Virus record (IMG/VR): IMGVR_UViG_2778261527_000008
Source: a virus
Taxonomy: Duplodnaviria > Heunggongvirae > Uroviricota > Caudoviricetes
Direction: 5' to 3' (one strand)
DNA length: 35,461 bases
Under the pieces are notes generated by a model. That model searched no databases. It was not told where the DNA came from and was given only the letters and a program-made list of their open reading frames with translations. The stretch's first letter is position 1, and the number at the start of each line of letters is the position of its first letter. Positions 1 to 35,461 of the stretch are shown here, piece after piece. A program made the translations under genes and the position numbers.

Positions 1-21
1 ATGCGAGGGACAGTCGAAATT

Positions 22-351
22 ATGCGTTATCCCGTCACTCTTACACCCGCGCCGGAAGGCGGTTATATGGTTTCTTTTGTGGATATCCCTGAAGCGTTGA
101 CGCAGGGCGAAACTGTCGCTGAAGCGATGGAAGCGGCAAAAGATGCTTTACTGACCGCATTTGATTTTTATTTTGAAGATAACGAGCTTATCCCGTTACC
201 TTCGCCATTAAATAGTCATGATCACTTTATTGAAGTACCTTTGAGCGTCGCCTCTAAAGTATTGCTGTTAAATGCTTTTTTACAGTCAGAAATCACTCAG
301 CAAGAGTTAGCCAGGCGAATTGGCAAACCTAAATGTTGTAAACCCCAATAA
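22..351 (+). CDS. hicB: HicB-family antitoxin, C-terminally divergent/truncated (frame open from window position 1; first plausible ATG at 22)
   Basis: Translation MRYPVTLTPAPEGGYMVSFVDIPEALTQGETVAEAMEAAKDALLTAF... matches my recollection of the enterobacterial HicB N-terminal domain; ORF ends ...RRIGKPKCCKPQ* at 349-351 where canonical HicB continues into a DNA-binding C-terminus; GC content drops after ~334. Confidence 0.55.
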   Translation: MRYPVTLTPAPEGGYMVSFVDIPEALTQGETVAEAMEAAKDALLTAFDFYFEDNELIPLPSPLNSHDHFIEVPLSVASKVLLLNAFLQSEITQQELARRIGKPKCCKPQ

Positions 352-574
352 CTAAAATTTTTGCAATAAAAAGCCCCATCTCAAGGACAAGGCTTAGAAA
401 TCAACTAATTAACATAGTTTCCAGATCAAAAGGGTTATAATGAAATCCATAAAAGGTGATCTGTTAGCTGGGTGCTGTATATCTAAAATGTTACTTAATT
501 AATATCGTTCTGGTGGTTAGCTTTCATCGCATCCCACCAGTCTTTTGTAATCTTCATGCTATTGAATTTCATAG

Positions 575-1345
575 TTATTTGCACCCGTACTGGTCAACAT
601 AGATTTTAGAATATCCTTGTTTTTGTACTTCTAAGCGAATCATATCTTGATTATCACGCCACACATAATATTTTTTGTTATCCACTTGACCTTCATATTG
701 CATAGCACCATTCTGATGCGTCACGGTTTTTGTTTTTGCTTTATGTGCGTTATAATTATCACGATACACAAATTCAATAATTTCCCCGTCTTTTACTTTA
801 AGTTTAAGTTCACCAGAGTTATAACGAGGATAACTAGGGTCTTTAACTACTTTTGTTTCTACCCCGTCGTGGATTTCCCATTCATAGTGAACATCGCATT
901 GTAATTCCATATCGCCTGTAAATCCTTTTGGTTTCTCTTCAACCTTCGGTTCTTCTACCACTTTTTCTTCCTGTTTCGGTTGTTCTTCTTCAACCTTCGC
1001 AGAAGTCTCTGAAACGCTCCCTGACGCGGTTTCTTCTTTAGATAATACATTCATCAAGTTTTGGATTTGAGCGTTGTATACAGCCTCCAGTGGCTGAATC
1101 TGCCCGATATTGATCATTGTATCACGAACAGTTTTATTCCAGTTGCGTTGCTCTTGTTTAAGCGACGGGTCAATCTTAACAGCCTTAACATATACTTCAT
1201 GAAGTTTAGAATCCAGTGCGGAGATTGACTCATTAGAACAAATAAACTTCTCTGATTTGGTAGTAGCTTTAGCGCAATCAAAGGACGCAGCATTAGCACC
1301 GAAAGCAGTAGCAGAAAGCACGATAGCAGCGATAATGTTTTTCAT
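575..1345 (-). CDS. secreted protein with DUF1311/LprI-like N-terminal domain, Glu/Lys-rich linker and C-terminal beta-rich domain (moron candidate)
   Basis: 256-aa ORF; signal peptide MKNIIAAIVLSATAFGANA; FDCAKATTKSEKFICSNESISALDSKLHEVY resembles the DUF1311 signature; RBS AAGAGG upstream of ATG. Confidence 0.45.
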   Translation of the reverse strand: MKNIIAAIVLSATAFGANAASFDCAKATTKSEKFICSNESISALDSKLHEVYVKAVKIDPSLKQEQRNWNKTVRDTMINIGQIQPLEAVYNAQIQNLMNVLSKEETASGSVSETSAKVEEEQPKQEEKVVEEPKVEEKPKGFTGDMELQCDVHYEWEIHDGVETKVVKDPSYPRYNSGELKLKVKDGEIIEFVYRDNYNAHKAKTKTVTHQNGAMQYEGQVDNKKYYVWRDNQDMIRLEVQKQGYSKIYVDQYGCK

Positions 1346-4532: not shown

Positions 4533-4874
4533 CTTATATCCTCCTAAATCTGGAATAATGATTTCTTAAAAAAGAGCTTTTCGCTCTGAACAATTCTATT
4601 TATAAAATGTTTTTCGAAAAACCCTGTAAAACCACTGTATATCCGATCAGTGGGAGCACGAATTGCTAAAGAGAAGATTAATAATTAATCAATTCGTACA
4701 TTATTCAATCGAATAAGCACTGTATGTTTAGCCAGTTCTGTATGAATTAACAGTGAGTCAGGGGATTTTCAGAAGTGAACAATCATTTCATGCATGTATT
4801 TATACACGAAAAAATCTTGCGTATCATCAATATGGGGATTGTTTCGAAAATTTCAACCCCTACCAACGAGAAAA

Positions 4875-4903
4875 AGCATAAAATAATCCTTGACAGTTGT
4901 CAA
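4875..4903 (-). promoter_or_regulatory. candidate sigma70 promoter reading leftward, embedded in palindrome TTGACA-gt-TGTCAA
   Basis: on minus strand -35 TTGACA (4903..4898), 17-nt spacer, -10 TATGCT (4880..4875); the palindrome could also be an operator. Confidence 0.3.
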
Positions 4904-5100
4904 TACACTTGATCTAAGCGAGAGATGACTATCAAAATTTTTGTGTGAAAATGGCGGATAACGATTATCAACCTTTATAACCTATTATAGCACGGCGACC
5001 TTTTGATAATTCTTTTTAAATCATGCATTTACGGCGATTTTTGGTGATTTTCTGGTTAAATAATATACAAGAATTTTCTATCAAAATTTTTGATGAAAAA

Positions 5101-5220
5101 CCTACACTACAAACCTACGCTTTAAAGGGATTGGCCTACACTACACTAGCCAGTAAACCTACACTATAACACCCTCAAACCTACACTATGAAACCTACAC
5201 ACCTACACTAACCCTACACT
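5101..5220. repeat. iteron-like direct repeat array, core CCTACACT (6 perfect + 2 variant copies)
   Basis: copies at 5101, 5114(var), 5135, 5158, 5180, 5194(var), 5202, 5213; three successive spacings of 21-23 bp; often preceded by AAA. Confidence 0.6.
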
Positions 5221-5408
5221 TCAATCTCATAAGTGTATGATATTGAAAGACATTTCACCCCACAGACCATAGAATATAAAATTCGAACTAACGTTCTCCT
5301 TTTTGCTCGTTTTCTCTCACTACGTTCAAGAAAGATCTCGCAAAAAGAATACGGCGTAGCCGTGCGCGAAGCGCCCATCAACACCTTCTAAGACCTGCAA
5401 GCAGGATT

Positions 5409-5561
5409 CGAAAGGGATTGGATAGTTCGCTTCGCTCACGTTCACGCCTACGGCGTTCACTCGCTTTTGAAAGGATTTTCTTAGAAAGGGATTTAATACT
5501 AGTTACTAACTGATTCTAGTAAACGAACGAAGTGAGTAACAATCACTTTCTAGAAAGGTAT
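5409..5561. repeat. second direct-repeat family GAAAGG(G)ATT (4 copies)
   Basis: copies at 5409, 5468, 5483, 5552 inside a GC-richer structured segment. Confidence 0.4.
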
Positions 5562-5799
5562 TGGTTATCCCTTCGGGATTGCAACCTTCGGTTGCTAAAT
5601 TGCTTCCTGATTATTATTTCTCCAAAAGAAAGATTCTTATATTCTAAAGATACTTCTTCGTTTTGATGATGATTTAATCAAACCATGAAGGAGGGCTTTA
5701 GCCCGACTGAATACAATCACCTTTCATAATAACAAGAATTTTCTCTTTATAAATAATAGTGAACTTACTTGATTCACTTTCTTTTAGAGGATTTCCACT

Positions 5800-6267
5800 A
5801 TGAACCATAAAATGACTACCACTACTCCTTTTATCCTTCTGGGTCTGGATTCTGATAGCTTCCACAATGACAAGTTAATGAAGATGTTCCGTGAACGTGG
5901 TTATAACATCCTTTTCAACTCTGATGAATCCCATTTCTCTAGTGCATGGTATGCGTTTTACCGTAATAAGAAGCCGACCATTGTAGTTAACTGCTTCACC
6001 GATGAAGAACGCTTAAAGTACCAGGATCTACCAGCAATTATTGTCCGTGATGATCTGCCGTTTCAAGTCCGTTCCGGTGACATTGATCTGGGTAGCTTCG
6101 TTACTGTCTATGAACTGGATGAAGCAATGTTTAACTACGGCAAAGAAACCGCTCAGGAAGCCCCAGAAGAAGATGAACAAGACGAAGATGACGACGACTA
6201 CGCACCAATCTGTTTTTCTTCTCAGAATGGCTTCTACGGTTACGACGAAGGCTTAGATATGCTGTAA
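5800..6267 (+). CDS. hypothetical protein with strongly acidic C-terminal tail (EEDEQDEDDDDY)
   Basis: 155-aa ORF, AGAGGA RBS, E. coli-like codon usage; first rightward gene after the control region. Confidence 0.5.
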   Translation: MNHKMTTTTPFILLGLDSDSFHNDKLMKMFRERGYNILFNSDESHFSSAWYAFYRNKKPTIVVNCFTDEERLKYQDLPAIIVRDDLPFQVRSGDIDLGSFVTVYELDEAMFNYGKETAQEAPEEDEQDEDDDDYAPICFSSQNGFYGYDEGLDML

Positions 6268-8474: not shown

Positions 8475-10382
8475 ATGAAACTGATTTCTAATAAGGCAAA
8501 ATTAAAAAAGATTCTCAGAAATGCAGCCAAATATATTACGCCACCGCCTAAACTCCTTCCATCGGAATGGTGCGAAGCGAATCTAACGCTAGTCGATGGT
8601 CCTCGTGCTGGGGATAAAGTTAAATTGCTGTCATTTCAGAAAGGCATGATTGATGCTCCTTTCCTTGAGAAGAAAAAGAAGTACGTTTTTTGTACGAGTG
8701 CGCAGATCGGAAAGACGACCATCATGTCAGGGATCATGTTTAACCAGATGGCAAACGATCCGTGTAATATCATTATCGGGCAAAGTACCGCTAAAGAAGT
8801 GGCTATGTACTTGAATACTAAGATCCGTCCTTCTATTGAAGCATGTCCGGCATTACAGGAAGTGGTAACAGATAAGAATGATCGTAATGCGGTAAACAAC
8901 AATAACCAGATTCAGCTAAAAACAAACCATTTCCTTTACATGGTTTCTTTGACCAGTCCTTCAAGTTTGCGCGGGCGTACTGCCAAGTTAGGGATTGTAG
9001 ACGAATGCGACGCAGCAACAATCACCGAAGAAGGTTGCCCGGTGGCACTAACTGCAAACCGTTTAACTACCTTTGGTGATGAAGCTCGATTGATTGTTTC
9101 TAGTACCCCGACCAATAAGCTGGGAATCATTAACCAGCAATGGTTATCAAGTGATATGCGTATGTTTTTTGTTCCGTGTCCTCATTGCGGGGAACACCAG
9201 GTGATCGAGTGGGAAAACGTTCAATTTGAATGGCGTAACATTGATGGTAAGAACTTACCCGATCCTGATACCGCTCGTTATATTTGCCCCCACTGTAAGA
9301 ACGCATGGACAGAAGGGGAACGAATCAGGGCAGTAGCGCAAGGCGAGTGGAGAGCAACCCGTGAAAGTGAAGTAGCAGGATTCTGGATCAGTCGTCTGTA
9401 TTCACCTTTCAGCACGATCCGCGCTTGTGTGGTTGATTTTAGTCATGCGTGGCAATCCTTTGATTTACAATCCTTTTTTAACACCGTGTTAGGCAAGGTA
9501 TACGACGATCAGGACACGGCAGTAGAAGCAAATGAACTGGAACAACTCAAAACAGATGTTTCTATCGAGAATATCCCTGATGACGTGATTTTCTTGTGTG
9601 CGGGTACTGACCAGCAATTAGATCGCGCAGAAACTACGATCATGGGCGTGGCAAAGGATAAGATTTATATTCTGGATCACCGCAGCTTTTACGATCATAA
9701 CTGTGAACGATATGAATCACCTGTATGGGATAGATTAATCAACTTCCATAAAACCAAATTTACTACTGTATCGGGTGATCGTGTTCCTATGCTCGCCAGC
9801 TTCCTTGATACATCGAACGGTCGATTCACTCAAGCTGGATACCGTATTTGCGGCAAGTGGAAGAACTTACACGCTATCAAAGGTAGTTCTGCTGGTAACG
9901 CTCCGATCATTCCGGTTAAACCTACCCGCACAGGTGGTCATGAATTGCTTATGCTGGGCGTTAACGTTGGGAAATCCGCTGTTCGTGAAATGCTGGTTAG
10001 AAACCTGAAAGATAATCCTCATATTGGCTTAGAAATATCAGAAACCATTCCTGATGATTATCTCGATCAGCTTTTGAGTGAATCCATCAAGCGTACTACT
10101 ACTGGCGTGCGTTGGGTGAAAAATCCAGGTAGTACCCGAAACGAGGCTCTCGACTGTCTGGTTTATAGCTATGCTGCTTCTCGCTACGTTCTTTCAAAAA
10201 TGTCATGGGATAAACTCATTGCAATGAAAGACAGCTTAAACCGTGTTGTCGAAGAATCCGTAGAAGCTCCTAAATCGCAATCTGACGAGCAAATCGAAGA
10301 AAATAAGCCAATCACACGACCACAACGTAAAAACATCGCCAGACGCCCAAATAGAGGCCGTAGCTGGGTAACATCGTTCTAA
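8475..10382 (+). CDS. terminase large subunit, lambda GpA family
   Basis: 635 aa, size and motifs (zinc-finger-like CPHCG...CPHC segment) consistent with GpA-type terminases; GAGGG RBS. Confidence 0.8.
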
Positions 10383-10454
10383 TAACTCGCCGTCCTTCGG
10401 GGCGGCTTACTCCTAAATATTGTTAATCCAATAACAATTAAATAAGGGGTAATT

Positions 10455-10949
10455 ATGAGTTTAGAACTAATTCCCTTAGTAATTCGTAAAGGTGAAAAAA
10501 TCACGCTGGCGAATGAAGAGGGTGTAACAATTCAGGTAGGAAATAGTAAAGGTATCATTTATCAGGTTGATGATACTCCGGCTAATCATGAGATTAAAAC
10601 CTTAGATTTTGCCGAAGGTAAATATACCATCGTAACCACTTTGGAAGAAGAACTGGTATCAATGCAGGAATTAACTGTTTTACCAGTATTCGCCAAACAA
10701 TCCAAAAAAGAATATCTGCGGGAAACTATCGCCTTAATCGAGCAAGTTATTTTCGCCCGTTTATCTGGGGACGAAGCCGCATTATCTCAAATGACAGTGA
10801 AAGGGAATACTTTCGCCTATGAGTCATTAGGTGTTCTCCAGCAATTAAAGACTGATTATGAACGTCAGTTATCAAAATTAATTCAAGCCGAACGACGTAA
10901 ACAGGGAATTAGCCCGATTAAAAATATTAAAGTACGTCTTACGCGATAA
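10455..10949 (+). CDS. gpW-like head-tail joining protein with extra N-terminal domain
   Basis: position between terL and portal as for lambda W; C-terminal half shows gpW-like spacing of hydrophobic/Gly residues; 164 aa vs 68 aa for lambda gpW. Confidence 0.35.
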   Translation: MSLELIPLVIRKGEKITLANEEGVTIQVGNSKGIIYQVDDTPANHEIKTLDFAEGKYTIVTTLEEELVSMQELTVLPVFAKQSKKEYLRETIALIEQVIFARLSGDEAALSQMTVKGNTFAYESLGVLQQLKTDYERQLSKLIQAERRKQGISPIKNIKVRLTR

Positions 10950-10959
10950 GGGGTAAATC

Positions 10960-12471
10960 ATGTTTAATCTTTTTCGACGCAAAAAGGCGGTAGAAACTCC
11001 AGTTAAAACTAATCACCGCCAACAACAACCAAAAATTTTCATCGACAAACAAGTAGAAAAATTTCAGAAAGATTTGTCTAAGCGTTCTTTGGGCTTAGTC
11101 GGTGATCGAATTGATGGGCAGCTTCAACAAGATACTATCACCGGAACGTTCAATAAGGCTCTCAAATCGAACGGTAAGCGCCTTTATGATCAGGGTCGTA
11201 CTCTGGCCTTAAACACTTCCGTAGGCAGTCGATACACGCAATACATCACCGATATGGTGGTAGGTACTGGCCTAGATCCGAAGCCGTCAATCGTTAAATC
11301 AAATGGCAAACTTGATAGCGCACTGAATAAGCAGATCGAGAATGCTTTCTGGAAGTGGGCGCAGAATGCTAAACGCTTCTCTCGTAACGGTCGCTTTAAC
11401 TTCCGTGAATTGCTGGTAATGGCTGAACGTGAGCGCGTTATGGGTGGTGAGTGTTTCATCGTTTTAACTAAAGAAAACAATGAGTTAAATGTTTCTATCC
11501 TGTCTGCTGATAAGTGCGACTGGACTCTCAACCGTGAAGTGAGCAAAGAACGTGCGATATATCAAGGTGTGGAGTATGCCGTAGAAACGATGAAGCCCGT
11601 GGCATACTGGTTTCGTAAAGTCAACCTACTGACTCAGACCTACACTGGTGATAACTATCGCGTCGATGCTTCGCAAGTATGCCATTATTATCAACCGCTT
11701 ACCGCCGAATCCCTGCGTGGTGTGACTGACTTCCTGCCAGTGATTAAGGATATCGCACATCAAGATGCATTCCGCGAAACTGCGATCATCCAGAAACGCA
11801 TTGCAGCTAGCTCTATGGGCTTTATCGAACGTCCGAAAGATTCTGGTGACGATTTTGATACTGGTGAAGAGGATGAACAATATCAAGCGCCGGAAGTAGT
11901 ACAGGACTTTGCACCGGGTACTATTCAGGAATTGCCGGAAGGGGCAACGATTAAGTCAATTCAGAGCGCCCAAAGTGGCGATGACTTTAACAGCTTCAAT
12001 GATGCGATGTTTACTAGCGTATCAATGGGCTTAGGCGTGTTTAAACAGGGCTTAACTGGTGATACCAGCCAGATCAACTACAGCGCAGCCCGCTACGGCG
12101 AATTGCTTCAACGCACACGAGTTAAAGCACTGCAAAACAAATTAATTGAAACAGTGGTATTGCCAATTTTTGAAGCATATCTACGCCATTATTCCGCGCG
12201 TGGTATTGTTCCGATTCGTATTACTGCAATTCCGCATATTATCGACAACACTACTATTATTCGTCCGCGTTTTGAATCCGTCGATCCTATTAAAGACGTA
12301 AACGCTGATATTGCTTTAATTGATAAAGGACTTAAATCACGTACTGCCGTTATATTAGAACGTGGTGATGATCCTGAAAAAGTATTCTCAGAGATTCAAG
12401 CCGAAAAGAGCGCACTAAATATTATCGTTGATGGTGAGGGTGAAGAAAAAAATTCCCCAGCCGATCCCTAA
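10960..12471 (+). CDS. portal protein (lambda gpB-like)
   Basis: 503 aa, immediately downstream of terL, acidic C-terminus; synteny. Confidence 0.75.
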   Translation: MFNLFRRKKAVETPVKTNHRQQQPKIFIDKQVEKFQKDLSKRSLGLVGDRIDGQLQQDTITGTFNKALKSNGKRLYDQGRTLALNTSVGSRYTQYITDMVVGTGLDPKPSIVKSNGKLDSALNKQIENAFWKWAQNAKRFSRNGRFNFRELLVMAERERVMGGECFIVLTKENNELNVSILSADKCDWTLNREVSKERAIYQGVEYAVETMKPVAYWFRKVNLLTQTYTGDNYRVDASQVCHYYQPLTAESLRGVTDFLPVIKDIAHQDAFRETAIIQKRIAASSMGFIERPKDSGDDFDTGEEDEQYQAPEVVQDFAPGTIQELPEGATIKSIQSAQSGDDFNSFNDAMFTSVSMGLGVFKQGLTGDTSQINYSAARYGELLQRTRVKALQNKLIETVVLPIFEAYLRHYSARGIVPIRITAIPHIIDNTTIIRPRFESVDPIKDVNADIALIDKGLKSRTAVILERGDDPEKVFSEIQAEKSALNIIVDGEGEEKNSPADP

Positions 12472-12516
12472 TAACCAACGGGGGCGCAATGCCCCCAATT
12501 AATTAAAGGTGATTAA

Positions 12517-14523
12517 ATGCTTAAATTTCGCCGCGATCTTAACGGTTACGGTGGAGTTATTAATGAAGGGCATAACGATCAATACGAATTTGAAATTGCT
12601 TTCTCAAGTACACAGCCTTATCAGCGCCAATTTTGGGATGAGCAAAATCAAGAAATGGTGGTATTAGATGAAATTCTGGTACATACACCGGAAGCGGTTG
12701 ATCTGTCTCGTCTGAATAATAACGCTCCGTTGCTGTTCAATCACAATTTCGATAATCACATTGGTGTAGTTTGTAACGCTCGAATCGATGCGGATAACGT
12801 AGGTCGTGCTCTGGTTAAGTTCTCCAAGCATGGGACTTTGGCTAATGATATTCGTAATAAAGTCATTGAAGGTACGATGGAAAAAATTTCTGTCGGCTAT
12901 GACATTAAAGAATATCACATCGATTATGCCAAAGGACAATTGATTGTTACTAAGTGGGCACCCTATGAACTCTCATTTGTCACCGTTCCCGCAGACGATA
13001 CGGTCGGTTTAAATCGCTCTCTAAATACTATCACAGTTAATTTGGAGGCTAAACGCGATATGACTAAAGAACAAATTGAAGAAATCAAAGAAGAACAAGA
13101 ATCCGCTCAGGTTGAAGAAACTCCGGTAGAAGAAAATAAAGAATCGGAAGTAGAAGAAACTCAAGAGCGCCAAGTTGAAGAGAATAAAGAAGATGAAAAT
13201 CTCGAAGACGGAAAAGACGCTGAACATCCTGAAAGTGTTGATGATGATAGTTCAACTGTTCGGGAAACAGAAGAAGTAAAAGAAGAACGTGAAGCCGCTC
13301 CGGTTGAAGAAGAAAAAATCGAAGAAGTGGCTGAACGTTCCGAAGAAGACGAATTAGAAATTCGCGAAATTGCACGCGAACTAAATATTGATGACGAAGA
13401 ATTGAAACGCGCATTGGCAATTAAAGATATGACGCCGGAAGCATTCCGCACTAAGGCACTAAATAACATTACCAATGCTCAACGTATTAACGAACAACAA
13501 ATTAAGGACTCTAAAATGGAAAAAACTTTTGACCTGAACAACGTAATTCGCTCTCTGGTAGATGGTGAAGCTCTGGGTGCTAACGAAGCCGAGTTTTCTG
13601 CAATGGCTGCTACTACAACTATGCAGCGTGGTCGTGCCGCTCGTGGTGGCTCTGTATTCGTTCCGGCTGCTGCTATGCGTGCTGCTGCTGATGGCAACAC
13701 CAAAGCTAATCTGGTTGCTATCACTGACGAAAAACTGATGACTGAATCCTACATCGAAATGCTGATGCCTCAGAGTGTTTTAGGCCGCCTCGGGGTGACT
13801 GTTTATAGTGGCTTGACTTCTCCGACCGCTATTCCAAAAATGACTAAATCCAGCGTTGACGCTTTCGGATTCGTTGACGAAAATGGCGCTGCCCCCGAGT
13901 CACATGCGGAATTTTCGAACGTGAAACTGTCTCCGAAAACTTTTGCTGGTGGCAACCCGATCAGCCGTCAGTCGCTGAAAACCGTTCCGGGCATCGCTAC
14001 CCTGATCACCGATCACATTAACAAATCTGTTCGGATCAAACTGGAACAACTGATTCTGTCTGATAAAGAAAATGCTCGTGGTCCGGCTGGTCTGGTTAAG
14101 CAACTGGTAGACGCTAGCCGCGTTACCAAGAAAGCTGCTTTCTCTTATAAAGACTTCCTGAAAGAAATTGCAGCACTGACTGACGCTGGCGTTCCTGCTC
14201 AGGCGATCAAGTTTGCGATGAGCGGTGCAACTGCTGCTGAACTGGAATCTACCCTGAAAGATAACGGCGTTTCCGGTTATATCATCGAAAACGGCAAACT
14301 GGCTGGTTACGAAGTAGTTACTTCTGGCGTTATTCCGGCAGACCACATCGTTCTGGGTGACTTCTCCGGTATTACTATCGGTGAGTGGGGCGGTCTGGAA
14401 CTGGATATGGATCTAACTACATACCGTGATCGTGGTGCGGTAGTGCCTCGTATCTTTGTAGATTTGGACTACGTTGTAGCACAGCCGGAAGCTCTGAAAG
14501 TTCTTCACATCTCCGCTGAATGA
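12517..14523 (+). CDS. prohead protease (HK97 gp4/S78-like) - acidic scaffold-like linker - major capsid protein (HK97 fold) fusion
   Basis: N-terminal ~170 aa with protease-like SVGY/ELSFVTVPA motifs; ~110-aa Glu-rich linker; C-terminal ~340 aa capsid-like; single uninterrupted ORF. Confidence 0.7.
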   Translation: MLKFRRDLNGYGGVINEGHNDQYEFEIAFSSTQPYQRQFWDEQNQEMVVLDEILVHTPEAVDLSRLNNNAPLLFNHNFDNHIGVVCNARIDADNVGRALVKFSKHGTLANDIRNKVIEGTMEKISVGYDIKEYHIDYAKGQLIVTKWAPYELSFVTVPADDTVGLNRSLNTITVNLEAKRDMTKEQIEEIKEEQESAQVEETPVEENKESEVEETQERQVEENKEDENLEDGKDAEHPESVDDDSSTVRETEEVKEEREAAPVEEEKIEEVAERSEEDELEIREIARELNIDDEELKRALAIKDMTPEAFRTKALNNITNAQRINEQQIKDSKMEKTFDLNNVIRSLVDGEALGANEAEFSAMAATTTMQRGRAARGGSVFVPAAAMRAAADGNTKANLVAITDEKLMTESYIEMLMPQSVLGRLGVTVYSGLTSPTAIPKMTKSSVDAFGFVDENGAAPESHAEFSNVKLSPKTFAGGNPISRQSLKTVPGIATLITDHINKSVRIKLEQLILSDKENARGPAGLVKQLVDASRVTKKAAFSYKDFLKEIAALTDAGVPAQAIKFAMSGATAAELESTLKDNGVSGYIIENGKLAGYEVVTSGVIPADHIVLGDFSGITIGEWGGLELDMDLTTYRDRGAVVPRIFVDLDYVVAQPEALKVLHISAE

Positions 14524-14649
14524 ACTCCTGTAGAACCATCTGAACCTTCCCCCGATTTGGGGGAAGAAAATCTGATTCCTGAACCGGAAGAAGAATCCCA
14601 GACGGTTAAGGCGAAAGCCACAGCTAAAAAACAGCGTAAAACTAAAGAA
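14524..14649 (+). other. in-frame post-UGA extension of the capsid ORF (42 codons), candidate readthrough isoform
   Basis: no stop in frame from 14524 to TAA TAA at 14650-14655; no start codon or RBS; encodes TPVEPSEPSPDLGEENLIPEPEEESQTVKAKATAKKQRKTKE. Confidence 0.4.
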
Positions 14650-14657
14650 TAATAATT

Positions 14658-14684
14658 AGCCCTGCCTAACGGTGGGGCTTTTTT
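14658..14684 (+). terminator. rho-independent terminator after capsid gene
   Basis: agccctgcc-taac-ggtggggct followed by tttttt. Confidence 0.6.
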
Positions 14685-14714
14685 GTATGTAAATACTCCA
14701 TAAAGGGGGTAACT

Positions 14715-15005
14715 ATGTTCAAATTATCAGAATCACAATTAAATCGAATGTTTAAAAGTGCTCCTGTATTTTCGGTGGAAGGTGGTAAATCAATTCGTGC
14801 TTATCATGAAATTACTACTACCGACGAATCGGGGGTAATGACAGAAACAGAATTTCTATTCTGTCGTGAGGGAGACTTAAAGCAAGGTGATATTGTCACA
14901 GTAGAAAACCAGCGTTTCAAAGTTCAATACGTTAAGCGCAATGGTGACAATACTTGTGATTGCTTTATCACTTTAGCAGGGGGTACACATGCTCGCTACC
15001 GTTAA
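14715..15005 (+). CDS. head-tail adaptor / head completion protein (candidate)
   Basis: 96-aa ORF directly after capsid gene, AGGGGG RBS; synteny only. Confidence 0.4.
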   Translation: MFKLSESQLNRMFKSAPVFSVEGGKSIRAYHEITTTDESGVMTETEFLFCREGDLKQGDIVTVENQRFKVQYVKRNGDNTCDCFITLAGGTHARYR

Positions 15006-15411
15006 TAATATGCCGAGACTGAAAATCAAACGCGCCTTGCAAGATATTATCGAACAAGATTTAGGTCTGGCTTTAAACGTAGAACAAACTCAGCAAGGCT
15101 TTAGTGATGACGTGGTTTGTTGGATTACTGGCATGAATGAGACTTACACAAGGGTCCGTGGCGGTAATGCAATGCAAGCTGAATGCGTTATCGAAATGCA
15201 GTTATATTCTCAGATTCATGAAACGAAAATTCATGAGGGTATTTGCCAGATAATCCAGATTCAGCCAGATAACCCACGATTTAAAGATTTGGGCTTCTCT
15301 ATTTCAGATATCACTCCAGTAGCTTCTAATACCGATTATGACGATGATTCTAGTGATGGGGGTATCGTTGGGACACTTAGCCTTAAATTTTCTTATCTAG
15401 CGCGTTTTTAA
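14989..15411 (+). CDS. head-tail joining or tail completion protein (candidate)
   Basis: 140-aa ORF overlapping previous stop by 17 nt; synteny only. Confidence 0.35.
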   Translation: MLATVNNMPRLKIKRALQDIIEQDLGLALNVEQTQQGFSDDVVCWITGMNETYTRVRGGNAMQAECVIEMQLYSQIHETKIHEGICQIIQIQPDNPRFKDLGFSISDITPVASNTDYDDDSSDGGIVGTLSLKFSYLARF

Positions 15412-15420
15412 GGGGTAATA

Positions 15421-16254
15421 ATGAATATTACACAAGATAACTTAGATATTTTTACGGGGTCGCATGTTGAAGTCTCCGTTTCTACTATGGTCGATAGCCA
15501 GCCGGACTTTTTCGATCCTAGTTTTAGTTCTATTGAGAACGTCGCAGCATTCCCTACGCTAACCGAATCCACAGAGATTGAAACTCTGGAAGAGTACGAT
15601 CAGGACGCTACGGGGAAACTTGCTGGTTATCGTAGACTGGAACCGACAACACTCACATTAAACCGTGTTCTTGACGATGAACATCAAGCAATGTTGATGA
15701 AAGCGGTAGGGGATAAAACACCTTTACGCTTCCGTATGTTCTATGTTGTGAACTCTGGCTATAGTGCTGCTAACACTGGTTACTATGTCATCTATGACGC
15801 TTATGTCACTAGTCACAAAACCCGTGGCGCAGATAACAAAGCTGTAACACTGGAATTTAAACTTGAACCAGATGGCGGGATTTTGGCAAGGGGGATTGCT
15901 ACCGAAGGCCGGATCTTACGTCAGGGTGATTTTGGTTTGGGTGCTGGTGTAAATCCATTCACGGGTCCGATTGACAGCGAGGCATTAGCCGGAAACCGTT
16001 TCGTAACTTACAAGGGAACTGCTAGCGGTAATCCATATTCAACCGACACAGCATTAATTCACCTTCAAGCTAATGAGCATGGCGCATGGCAATTAACCTG
16101 TAATACTTCTGGCGCACCACGTTTACGCGTCCGAAATATTCAGGAAAACGGTCGCTCTGAATGGATCAAGGTATATTCCACCAATGAGAAACCGACACCT
16201 AGCGAAATTGGCGCAGTAGCTAAAACTGATAGAGTCGATTTCGGGGAGTATTGA
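15421..16254 (+). CDS. putative tail-tube-fold protein with C-terminal fiber-like segment (candidate side-fiber anchor/collar)
   Basis: 277 aa; N-terminal half has tube-protein-like pattern; C-terminal KPTPSEIGA motif shared with the downstream fiber. Confidence 0.35.
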   Translation: MNITQDNLDIFTGSHVEVSVSTMVDSQPDFFDPSFSSIENVAAFPTLTESTEIETLEEYDQDATGKLAGYRRLEPTTLTLNRVLDDEHQAMLMKAVGDKTPLRFRMFYVVNSGYSAANTGYYVIYDAYVTSHKTRGADNKAVTLEFKLEPDGGILARGIATEGRILRQGDFGLGAGVNPFTGPIDSEALAGNRFVTYKGTASGNPYSTDTALIHLQANEHGAWQLTCNTSGAPRLRVRNIQENGRSEWIKVYSTNEKPTPSEIGAVAKTDRVDFGEY

Positions 16255-32280: not shown

Positions 32281-33960
32281 TTAAATTCCAAATTCTTGTA
32301 ATGGACCTGGTATTTCTTCTTCTGGTTTCCAGTTCTTATCTGTCAGCATGTCTAAACATGGATGCAGAACAAGCCCGTTACTCTCCAGAATCTGCCTATC
32401 ATTGATAGTCTTCAAATCAACGAAGATCCGGCCTTTCCTCGGTCCTCTTGAATTTTCTATTACAACTCTCTGGGTCTTGCCATCGATGTATTCCAGTACA
32501 AACAAGTTTTTGTACTTGTCAATCCTGCTACACCCGATCCGTTTTAGAGCTTGCTTAATCTTAAACCGGACCTTAATGCGATCCTCGTTGTAAACATCTT
32601 CTAAATCAAATTCTGCGAGCTTCTCCCAGCCTTGAGAGTCAACAGAATACATTTCCTCTTCTGCCATCTTAAGTTGATTGTAGAGTGTTTCACGCTCGCT
32701 ATTGAGGGTAGTAATCTGATCGGCTAGCTCCTTCGTTGCTCCTGTCATAGCAGAAAGGGTAATCAGGTTATCAATCTTGCGTGATATTTCATCAATCTGT
32801 ACTTTCAAAGCCGGAACCGGATTAGCCTTATCTTCAGCAATCCAGATTTTATCAGCCAGCAATTGCAATACAGCTTTCTCTAATTGGTCGCCGCGAAAAC
32901 TCCAGTTTGTATGCACACATTCAATACGACTAGAGCGCATTGCATCGCATGAATAACGATATTGGTTAGGCCGTCTGTTTGTTCCTTTCACCTTAACCAT
33001 AGCGGAACCGCAATGTTCACATTTCAATAGACCAACACCACTAAGCAAGGGAATAGGTTTAGCTTCTTCTTTGTCTCCAAAGTTACATGCTCTAACACCA
33101 ATGCTTTTCTTAAGGTGATAAAACTCAGCGTCATCTAGCACACGAGGATAATAATCCTTTAACTCATACTTAACGCCATCTACAGAGATTTCCTTGATAC
33201 CAATCAAAGCGCGGGTATGGAACAACCTTTCAATCATTGCCCGTGACCAGTTTGAATGCCTCTTGTGACTTGCGGCTGGTGGTGGTGTGTATGTCGCGTT
33301 AAGGTGATCCAGTATCTCGGCGGTTGACCGTCCATTCCTGCGTAATTCCACAACTTCCTGAACAATAGGGAAGAAGACCGGATGAGGAAGCACATAACCA
33401 GATGTGGTATCAGTCCACCACATATTCTTTCCAATTTCCTCGATTGCAACAGCCGGATTTTGTGGATTTTCTTGATGAGCTTTAATCTTAATCAGTGCGC
33501 TTGAGTTAGTACGATTGCGCTTAGTCTGGCTTTCCTCATTACCACGGATGAATAAAAGGATGGAGAACATCAGGTCCATCGGGTTAGCGGTAACAGTATC
33601 AAGCGAGTAGATCTTGTTATCCATGCCAGTAACAATGGTTATCCCCCTACGGATGATTGAAAGGAATAACTCCTGCGCACTGACAATATCGGCACGGGAT
33701 AAACGGTCCAAGTTTTCGATGAATAGCCAGCTACCAACAGGAACGGATCTACCTATTGCATCAAGGAAACGAGATAGCGCCCCTGTTTTGGAGTTAGCAC
33801 CCTTAAACGCAGATACACCCAGATCCTGATAATCATTTACCAGTTCAAGGTCATACTTTACCGCAATCTCTCTAGCCATCCTGATTTGTCGTTCATAACT
33901 CGAACCATCATTCTGACGCATAGACGAGAAGCGAATATACGAATACAGTTTAGTTTTCAT
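32281..33960 (-). CDS. large serine recombinase (integrase/resolvase family)
   Basis: 559 aa from ATG at 33960; N-terminal resolvase catalytic motif YIRFSS..Q; Cys-rich zinc ribbon CEHCG...C..C; coiled-coil segment. Confidence 0.8.
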   Translation of the reverse strand: MKTKLYSYIRFSSMRQNDGSSYERQIRMAREIAVKYDLELVNDYQDLGVSAFKGANSKTGALSRFLDAIGRSVPVGSWLFIENLDRLSRADIVSAQELFLSIIRRGITIVTGMDNKIYSLDTVTANPMDLMFSILLFIRGNEESQTKRNRTNSSALIKIKAHQENPQNPAVAIEEIGKNMWWTDTTSGYVLPHPVFFPIVQEVVELRRNGRSTAEILDHLNATYTPPPAASHKRHSNWSRAMIERLFHTRALIGIKEISVDGVKYELKDYYPRVLDDAEFYHLKKSIGVRACNFGDKEEAKPIPLLSGVGLLKCEHCGSAMVKVKGTNRRPNQYRYSCDAMRSSRIECVHTNWSFRGDQLEKAVLQLLADKIWIAEDKANPVPALKVQIDEISRKIDNLITLSAMTGATKELADQITTLNSERETLYNQLKMAEEEMYSVDSQGWEKLAEFDLEDVYNEDRIKVRFKIKQALKRIGCSRIDKYKNLFVLEYIDGKTQRVVIENSRGPRKGRIFVDLKTINDRQILESNGLVLHPCLDMLTDKNWKPEEEIPGPLQEFGI

Positions 33961-34023
33961 ACCATTTCCAAACAAAAACGCCCCTACCGCGTATTATAAC
34001 GATAGGGGCCAGGTGATTAAAGA

Positions 34024-34751: not shown

Positions 34752-35189
34752 TTAAGCGCGAACGATGGTCAGAGTATCCAGCAAACCTTTTTCGTATAAT
34801 TCGAAACACGTTTTATATTGCTCAATCTTCCAACCGTAGCGGGTGATCTTATTCAGTAGAATAATCACGGTATTCTCATCTAGGTATTGTCCTTGCTTAC
34901 CAATTACATATGACTCGCGGGATAGTCTCAGCTTACGGAAACCTTTAACACCTAATTCCTTAGCCACCGCTTTAACCTCGTTAATCTCACCTTCTGCGGC
35001 TACATATTCAGCGTCGATAATCTCAGTTGATGATCTCAGTGCTACCAGAACTAAGGCCATTGCTTCTTCTTCGGTACGAGCAACACCAGCTTTCTCGAAA
35101 GTCATCTCACCAAATTTACGAGTCATAATATTGAACATTGTCTGTATTCCGTTTAAATCGGCGGGAATAGTACCCGCCAAATTAGACAT
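34752..35189 (-). CDS. hypothetical protein
   Basis: 145-aa ORF; start overlaps upstream gene stop. Confidence 0.4.
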   Translation of the reverse strand: MSNLAGTIPADLNGIQTMFNIMTRKFGEMTFEKAGVARTEEEAMALVLVALRSSTEIIDAEYVAAEGEINEVKAVAKELGVKGFRKLRLSRESYVIGKQGQYLDENTVIILLNKITRYGWKIEQYKTCFELYEKGLLDTLTIVRA

Positions 35190-35461
35190 TACTTCTTGCT
35201 GATAAACTCTTTAGCGATAAAGTTGATTACTTCTTTCAGCTTCTTGTCTGTATCGATGCACGCTGGTAATTCTTCTTTAATATCCTGCGGCAGATACACA
35301 TTCCCTTTAAAGTGGAGGAAACCATCATTACCAATCATGTAGGAGAACATCCATTCACAATCGTTATCCGCTTCCCAGAACGCCACGGTCTCATCGTCAA
35401 TCAAGGTAATGTCCATGTTGCGACGTGCTGCGTAGTTGATGATTGCTTTACCGATGTTCAT
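35189..35461 (-). CDS. hypothetical protein (start coincides with window edge; may be N-terminally incomplete)
   Basis: 90-aa ORF whose ATG is the last three bases of the window. Confidence 0.35.
   Translation of the reverse strand: MNIGKAIINYAARRNMDITLIDDETVAFWEADNDCEWMFSYMIGNDGFLHFKGNVYLPQDIKEELPACIDTDKKLKEVINFIAKEFISKK

Follow-up and report, generated by a model that had tools for sequence, protein, structure and literature searches.

A host/prophage junction within the Escherichia coli antitoxin gene hicB, probably formed by a prophage-encoded serine recombinase

The viral DNA analysed here, a stretch of 35,461 nt referred to as the window, opens with a hicB-like ORF that ends early, which raises the question whether its left end is a host/prophage junction inside an antitoxin gene or whether the element carries a truncated hicB of its own. 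The comparisons described below lead us to regard nt 1-574 as very probably the left attachment junction (attL) of a temperate siphovirus-like prophage of ~35 kb that was integrated into E. coli hicB by its own serine recombinase.

Left junction, empty site and reciprocal junction

The following features were assigned to the left end of the window.

1-326, plus strand: host DNA, 5′ part of chromosomal hicB (98.5% identity to K-12; match to Pfam HicB_lk_antitox), coding for the HicA-binding N-terminal domain and helices 1-2 of the HTH
299-324, plus strand: left (B) half-site of attB in hicB, AGCAAGAGTTAGCCAGGCGAATTGGC, placed from the mapped crossover, its 26-nt extent being nominal
325-326, plus strand: crossover dinucleotide AA, inside the Lys codon AAA (K102 of K-12 HicB)
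327-352, plus strand: right (P′) half-site of the phage attP, ACCTAAATGTTGTAAACCCCAATAAC, mirroring the attP left arm GTTATTGTGGGTACATGATATTAGGG at 15/26 positions
334-35461, no strand assigned: sequence without hicB match (the prophage body proper begins at nt 327)
371-395, minus strand: terminator-like hairpin with a 10-pair stem, a 5-nt loop and a TTTATT tail, 3′ of the LprI gene

The ORF occupies nt 1-351 (+), comprises 116 aa and has the C-terminal end ...ELARRIGKPKCCKPQ, followed by the stop; the annotated start of K-12 hicB corresponds to nt 22 of the window, giving a product of 109 aa. In ungapped comparisons with K-12 hicB, 328 of the 333 bases of nt 1-333 were identical (98.5%), whereas nt 335-440 showed 31% identity over 106 bases; the identity break at nt 333/334 is sharp and not due to chance. 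An earlier note on this DNA had described a hicB-like ORF that matches chromosomal HicB up to GKPK, diverges at about nt 334 and terminates early with CCKPQ. This description was correct, residues 1-104 being identical to those of K-12 HicB and the ORF stopping at nt 351. The P′ half-site contributes the codons for ..PKCCKPQ as well as the TAA stop (nt 349-351) that ends the truncated HicB. The note had also pointed to a drop in base composition. GC content does fall locally, from 44.5% in nt 1-326 to 33.5% in nt 327-574 (41.6% in the remaining window), but the drop is weak as evidence, because 27% of the same-sized prophage windows reach or exceed the GC content of the hicB part; base composition was therefore rejected as an indication of a junction. 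At the left end of the prophage the first 70-80 nt are conserved, divergent relatives included. Read on the minus strand from nt 395 to 371, the hairpin would halt leftward phage transcription ahead of the truncated gene (hicB′).

Megablast searches with nt 1-1400 against 5426 complete E. coli genomes matched hicB in 5322 of them. In a minority of genomes the whole of nt 1-1400 was matched contiguously, hicB being annotated there as a pseudogene 'missing C-terminus'. A query spanning the right junction (attR) revealed the prophage or remnants of it in hicB in ~33 of the 5426 genomes (~0.6%) and the prophage family in ycdX in ~12; ~5300 genomes aligned only from the attB core TTGGCAAACC onward, as expected of an uninterrupted hicB. 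The empty site was observed in K-12, where hicA, hicB and ydcR follow each other without interruption, in agreement with the suggestion that intact hicB would be found in enterobacterial genomes. The occupied site was observed in strain 266917_2, in the order rlhA-yncJ-hicA-hicB′, ~35 kb of phage genes (terminase gpA, portal, capsid, tail tube, tail tip, D-Ala-D-Ala carboxypeptidase and a 'recombinase family protein'), a 117-nt hicB 3′ fragment and ydcR. The reciprocal junction, i.e. a hicB 3′ fragment of 117-120 nt and then ydcR directly after the last phage gene, was present in the genomes L002, L032 and L037-L040.

The window's final base belongs to the start codon (ATG) of the last phage gene; in 266917_2, 40 nt separate that codon from the hicB 3′ fragment. 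The window thus comprises hicB′ and almost the whole prophage and ends ~40 nt short of attR. The hicB 3′ fragment that the earlier note had proposed for the other prophage end was thus found in complete genomes, but lies outside the window. hicA and attR are likewise outside, and their context was taken from near-identical genomes and not from this molecule. The exact 116-aa product was indexed in 406 blocks of an assembly collection; among the matches listed, the ORF stood behind sutR-rlhA-yncJ-hicA in 6/6 places, and hicA (58 aa) ended 24 nt upstream of the identical ORF in 6/6 contigs.

Two alternatives to a junction were weighed against these data. The first, already raised in the earlier note, is that the element carries a truncated hicB homologue as cargo and that the start of the window is not a junction at all. 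hicAB modules do occur on prophages and plasmids, and hicB′ is the only host gene in the window; this reading is nevertheless extremely improbable, since the 333 nt match the chromosomal allele at 98.5% identity, the chromosomal genes sutR-rlhA-yncJ-hicA precede it in every genome or contig examined, the exact remainder of hicB and ydcR are located at the other prophage end, and a sister phage with the same attP arms, inserted in ycdX, has no hicB sequence. The second dispenses with a mobile element and takes the short C-terminus for a normal HicB variant, a frameshift or an assembly artefact. HicB predictions with frameshifts or odd ends are numerous in public assemblies; here, however, the alignment breaks off into DNA that is unrelated to hicB and codes for phage structural genes, and the junction recurs base for base in independent complete E. 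coli genomes together with its reciprocal, which makes such an origin next to impossible. The host/prophage junction inside hicB is borne out by hicA upstream, by the hicB fragment and ydcR at the far end and by the ~5300 uninterrupted genomes. It follows for prophage calls of the IMG/VR type, the window included, that 'partial HicB' ORFs at their ends are host DNA and can be mistaken for phage genes.

Remnants of the prophage at hicB were found in strains EC42405 (L049) and L73 (L050). They measure 4-7 kb, are riddled with IS1/IS3 and have no integrase, indicating that the split can become permanent. L73 has kept hicA and hicB′; its hicB split is permanent, because prophage and integrase were destroyed by IS elements. 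EC42405 contains a similar remnant, but hicA and ~200 nt at the start of hicB are missing there as well, as might be seen if selection on the split locus were relaxed or adverse.

Two further arrangements were observed at this locus. In E. coli C325 (Accession No. NZ_CP124819.1), attL at ~846.5-847.9 kb (+) and attR at ~1052.0-1052.4 kb (-) are ~205 kb apart and in opposite orientation, which suggests a chromosomal inversion with one breakpoint within the prophage. In Logan contig ERR4567657_696 (L051, 4940-5784), a different AT-rich element with a DUF2726 gene is joined to hicB. This joint lies 8 nt further right (..AAACCTAAACAG/CAACTATG.., the slash marking the joint) and generates a HicB fusion ORF of 167 aa. 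The HTH-coding region of hicB may therefore have been hit by more than one element.

Crossover position, integrase and target choice

The recombinase gene is located near the right end of the window.

32281-33960, minus strand: large serine recombinase (integrase), 559 aa from the ATG of MKTKLY, assigned by Pfam and phrog_95

Its start follows the RefSeq annotation of homologues, the listed ORF reaching nt 33975 from an upstream TTG. The protein showed Pfam matches to PF00239 Resolvase (residues 11-158), PF07508 Recombinase (203-291) and PF13408 Zn_ribbon_recom (315-373), all above the curated cutoffs, and belongs to the phrog_95 integrase family; it is the sole recombinase annotated in the syntenic prophages. 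Typical of large serine integrases (LSRs) are a core of 2 bp that is not palindromic, a dyad attP of ~50 bp and integration without target duplication.

To position the crossover, attachment sites at hicB and at the second target, ycdX, were aligned on the central AA.

hicB attB (K-12): CGAATTGGC-AA-ACCTAAACAGG
hicB attL (window, MEI003, L3Cip3): GAATTGGC-AA-ACCTAAATGTTGTAAACCCC
hicB attL (266917_2): GAATTGGC-AA-CCCGAATGTAGTCAACCC
hicB attR, first of three variants: ..GATATTTGGC-AA-ACCTAAACAGG
hicB attR, second variant: ..ATTAGGC-AA-..
hicB attR, third variant: ..ATTAGGG-AA-..
ycdX attB (K-12): CATCCCGGA-AA-TCCCAAATATG
ycdX attL: CATCCCGGA-AA-CCC[G/A]AA..
ycdX attR: ..ATT[T/A]GG[C/G]-AA-TCCCAAATATG

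Junction variants also occurred at hicB, namely GGC/AA/CCCGAATG in attL of L002 and ATTAGGG/AA/ACCTAAAC in attR of L037, L038, L040 and L011. At ycdX, the bases flanking AA are of host origin at one junction and of phage origin at the other, and both flanks differ between attB, attL and attR; the exchange is therefore confined to the AA dinucleotide. Position -1 is A in K-12 ycdX, and an intact hicB allele with GGG was no longer needed to place the origin of the G in attR. Because the same phage arms occur at hicB, the hicB crossover is at nt 325-326, in the AAA codon of Lys102. This is 8 nt upstream of the visible divergence and not at nt 334, where the earlier note had put it. Identity with hicB persists to nt 333 because the right arm of the phage also begins with ACCTAAA, 7 nt that coincide with hicB. 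The description of an integration into the 3′ end of hicB has to be corrected as well, since the insertion lies in the HTH turn, at codon 102 of 138.

When attP was rebuilt from the left part of attR and the right part of attL of one genome, a 54-bp site, GTTATTGTGGGTACATGATATTAGGG-AA-ACCTAAATGTTGTAAACCCCAATAAC, was obtained. Its 26-nt arms are mirrored at 15/26 positions when centred on AA, which is the best register (next best, 11), and this dyad score was reached in 14 of 20000 shuffles. A target-site duplication is absent, the crossover being located at a 2-bp central dinucleotide. As a serine recombinase that crosses over at 2 bp, the integrase would not leave the flanking direct repeats that had been suggested.

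Integration by a tyrosine integrase, or by homologous recombination via the shared core of 9-14 bp (GGCAAACCTAAA), is very improbable. attL and attR of the window-type phage do share 9-14 bases around the junction, resembling the core of a tyrosine integrase; the shared stretch is, however, reduced to 7 bp in L002 and to the 2-bp AA at ycdX. The syntenic prophages have no annotated tyrosine integrase, and AA is the symmetry centre of attP, in the manner of serine-integrase sites.

In the mechanism we propose for the serine recombinase, the integrase would pair the ~54-bp attP (GTTATTGTGGGTACATGATATT[A/T]GG[G/C]-AA-ACCTAAATGTTGTAAACCCCAATAAC) with the hicB attB (..GCGAATTGGC-AA-ACCTAAACAGG..), an activity and specificity that are predicted. 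Strands would be exchanged at the central AA (nt 325-326 of the window) with no target duplication, splitting hicB in the HTH turn and leaving a left part that ends at the stop inside the attP arm. Precise excision should restore hicB, with the predicted attB ..GCGAATTGGCAAACCTAAACAGGAG.. and the circular attP ..GTTATTGTGGGTACATGATATT[A/T]GG[G/C]AAACCTAAATGTTGTAAACCCCAATAAC.. as products.

Several LSR integrases are known to split protein-coding genes, e.g. those of Listeria A118/phi10403S (comK), Bacillus SPbeta (spsM), the skin element (sigK) and Bxb1 (groEL1). The element described here resembles them in the order Resolvase-Recombinase-Zn ribbon, in the 2-bp non-palindromic crossover, in the imperfect dyad attP of ~50 bp and in the lack of target duplication; as in these elements, a host ORF is split, probably reversibly by precise excision. 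It differs from them in its host, E. coli, in its target, hicB (ycdX in the sister lineage), and in its integrase, which is at most ~30% identical to the LSRs of the phage collection. Splitting of a host gene by a serine integrase is thus a known and ordinary type of event, and it is the hicB site that appears to be undescribed. The searchable literature yielded no description of hicB (ydcQ) or ycdX as a prophage attachment site, and the accessible part of the supplementary text of Durrant et al. (2022), a large LSR survey, contained neither the att sequences nor the integrase N-terminus, which does not prove that they are absent. The list of E. coli prophage attachment sites can be extended by hicB and, in the sister lineage, by ycdX, with attB, attP and crossover defined to the base.

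Twelve integrases from complete genomes formed three clades, two of which are located at hicB. The two hicB clades differ from each other by 32 fixed differences, 31 of them in the catalytic N-terminal domain. The hicB-type and ycdX-type integrases, which are 87-93% identical, are likewise separated by 32 fixed differences, but here the catalytic domain has none of them, and 26 of the 32 fall in residues 176-375, which form the DNA-binding recombinase and zinc-ribbon domains (binomial p = 2e-7). The attP arms of 266917_2 (hicB) and UTME-9 (ycdX) are identical. These data fit a target choice that resides in the C-terminal domains of the integrase. The association between integrase type and site is perfect, and it could alternatively reflect the shared ancestry of the ycdX clade, that is, lineage history.

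The sister prophages in ycdX (E. coli UTME-9, ES2, PEC41 and STEC1575) have the same phage backbone and the same AA crossover, and differ in their attB (CATCCCGGA-AA-TCCCAAATATG) and in the 32 fixed integrase substitutions relative to the hicB clades. In this lineage (UTME-9 = L033, L034-L036, L041, L052 and L053) the insertion is in the middle of ycdX, at codon ~133 of 245 and at the same AA. The attB sites of hicB and ycdX are alike (GG.AA.CC.AAA), coding for G-K-P-K and G-N-P-K, respectively. The ycdX lysogens gave a second match to the attR query, which was taken to be their own hicB locus. Such a pair of serine integrases, closely related and sharing attP but differing in attB and in their DNA-binding domains, offers a ready system in which target specificity can be studied or engineered.

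Consequences for the HicAB module

The truncated HicB retained its match to Pfam PF15919 (residues 3-67, 33.6 bits; cutoff 27), the HicA-binding N-terminal domain being intact. Full-length HicB matched HTH_3 at residues 88-134 (31.6 bits; cutoff 23), and this match is absent from the truncated 109-aa product, so that the loss of the C-terminal DNA-binding part, as claimed by the earlier note, was confirmed. An AlphaFold2 model of full-length HicB (mean pLDDT 83.7) placed helices at residues 32-52, 74-89, 93-100, 104-110 and 119-128. According to this model, the cut at residues 102-104 lies in the HTH turn and removes the recognition helix (104-110) and everything after it. In comparison with E. 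coli K-12 HicAB (PDB 6HPB/6HPC and 6U0I), residues 1-104 are identical in the window product, which lacks 105-138, i.e. the recognition helix, the fourth helix and the dimerisation strand. The C-termini of the junction variants differ, CCKPQ (five phage-encoded codons) terminating the product in the window and GNPNVVNPK in others; both arm variants give a product of 109 aa, because the stop (nt 349-351) sits in the outer AATAAC motif of the attP arm.

According to reviews, the N-terminal domain of HicB neutralises HicA, with helix alpha1 packing on the toxin; EcHicB dimerises via the strand after the HTH; and HicB represses promoter P2 at hicO, the P2 transcript giving HicB only. Yersinia HicB3 without its C-terminal domain is still found in complex with HicA3, and some natural HicBs ('class 1/2', 63-103 aa; Gerdes 2024) have no DNA-binding domain. 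HicB′ of the window resembles the latter in architecture and differs from them by its origin through insertion. In the 109-aa HicB′ the regions by which HicA is bound and blocked, the partial RNase-H domain and helix alpha1, are retained, and the recognition helix, the fourth helix and the C-terminal dimerisation strand are missing; during lysogeny HicA would be neutralised while the repression of P2 at hicO by HicB would be lost. We consider it rather probable that HicB′ still neutralises HicA but does not autoregulate hicAB. HicB′ may also be unstable or inactive. As hicAB of ~0.6% of complete E. coli genomes has an antitoxin without DNA-binding domain, the insertion matters for the scoring of toxin-antitoxin and defence surveys.

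The integration could be more than a neutral choice of site. It might be adaptive, either by disarming or rewiring HicAB as an abortive-infection defence or by serving as a reversible switch. In favour of this, the gene is interrupted precisely at the HTH turn and the toxin-neutralising domain stays whole, HicA systems have been proposed as anti-phage modules, and hicA was intact in three lysogens. On the other hand, the sister lineage uses the unrelated gene ycdX with a similar sequence around AA (GG.AA.CC.AAA), which points to sequence-driven targeting, and the insertion occurs in only ~0.6% of genomes; an adaptive role is accordingly regarded as unlikely. The same low probability was given to a functional targeting of hicB, in which lysogeny would yield a HicB without DNA-binding domain, derepress P2 and lock off the HicA RNase, and, separately, to a specificity switch by ~30 substitutions in the recombinase and zinc-ribbon domains. 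If true, targeting of hicB would counter a defence by insertion or would rewire a toxin-antitoxin module in a reversible way.

The prophage and its relatives

Gene content was derived from the annotation of the syntenic prophages in L002 and L032 and from PHROG matches, and the right end from a comparison with L002. The prophage of ~35 kb codes for small terminase, large terminase (gpA type), portal, capsid, tail, lysis genes and integrase. Two genes next to the attachment sites were recorded in addition.

575-1345, minus strand: gene of an LprI-family secreted protein, 256 aa (Pfam LprI and phrog_14799)
35189-35461, minus strand: last prophage gene, 90 aa, by attR (match to phrog_6147; comparison with L002)

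This last gene borders directly, in L002, on the attP left arm and the hicB 3′ fragment. The structural region (window 8475-16254, packaging and head module) gave only trivial nucleotide matches in 50,697 phage records, and the large terminase was at most 42.7% identical to that of any phage in these records (best match, phage DCP80). Since nucleotide matches to phage genomes were lacking and the large terminase is so divergent, the lineage has no cultured representative: on these comparisons it is an uncultured temperate siphovirus-like lineage of E. coli with no cultured relative in its family. IMG/VR contained ~28 viral contigs with integrases 86-100% identical, plus one at 72%. These related contigs are prophage calls, mostly trimmed at gene borders like the window; three reach attR and none is circular. 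An excised circular attP was not found in IMG/VR, an exact-pattern scan for the left arm of attP/attR, GGGTACATGATATTTGGCAA, giving 0 matches, and no recombination directionality factor was identified in the element.

A region of ~1.3 kb (window 4533-5800) showed no convincing ORF, the longest comprising 56 aa, and is also unannotated in the RefSeq prophage copies. It may be a regulatory or origin region; Rfam gave no match anywhere in the window, this region included. A tRNA-Glu(ttc) of 91 nt predicted by ARAGORN at 15176-15266 (-) is probably spurious, as it is antisense to the coding sequence 14989-15411.

The position of the LprI gene next to attL (575-1345) is a variable cargo slot, which in other lysogens is occupied by genes of 101 aa or 358 aa. 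The 5′ ~410 nt of the LprI gene (nt 932-1351) showed 95-97% nucleotide identity with a hypothetical gene of the Krischvirus phages RB49, JSE and Phi1, which are virulent and T4-like. This similarity suggests a recent exchange of a gene fragment between the temperate siphovirus-like prophage and lytic myoviruses.
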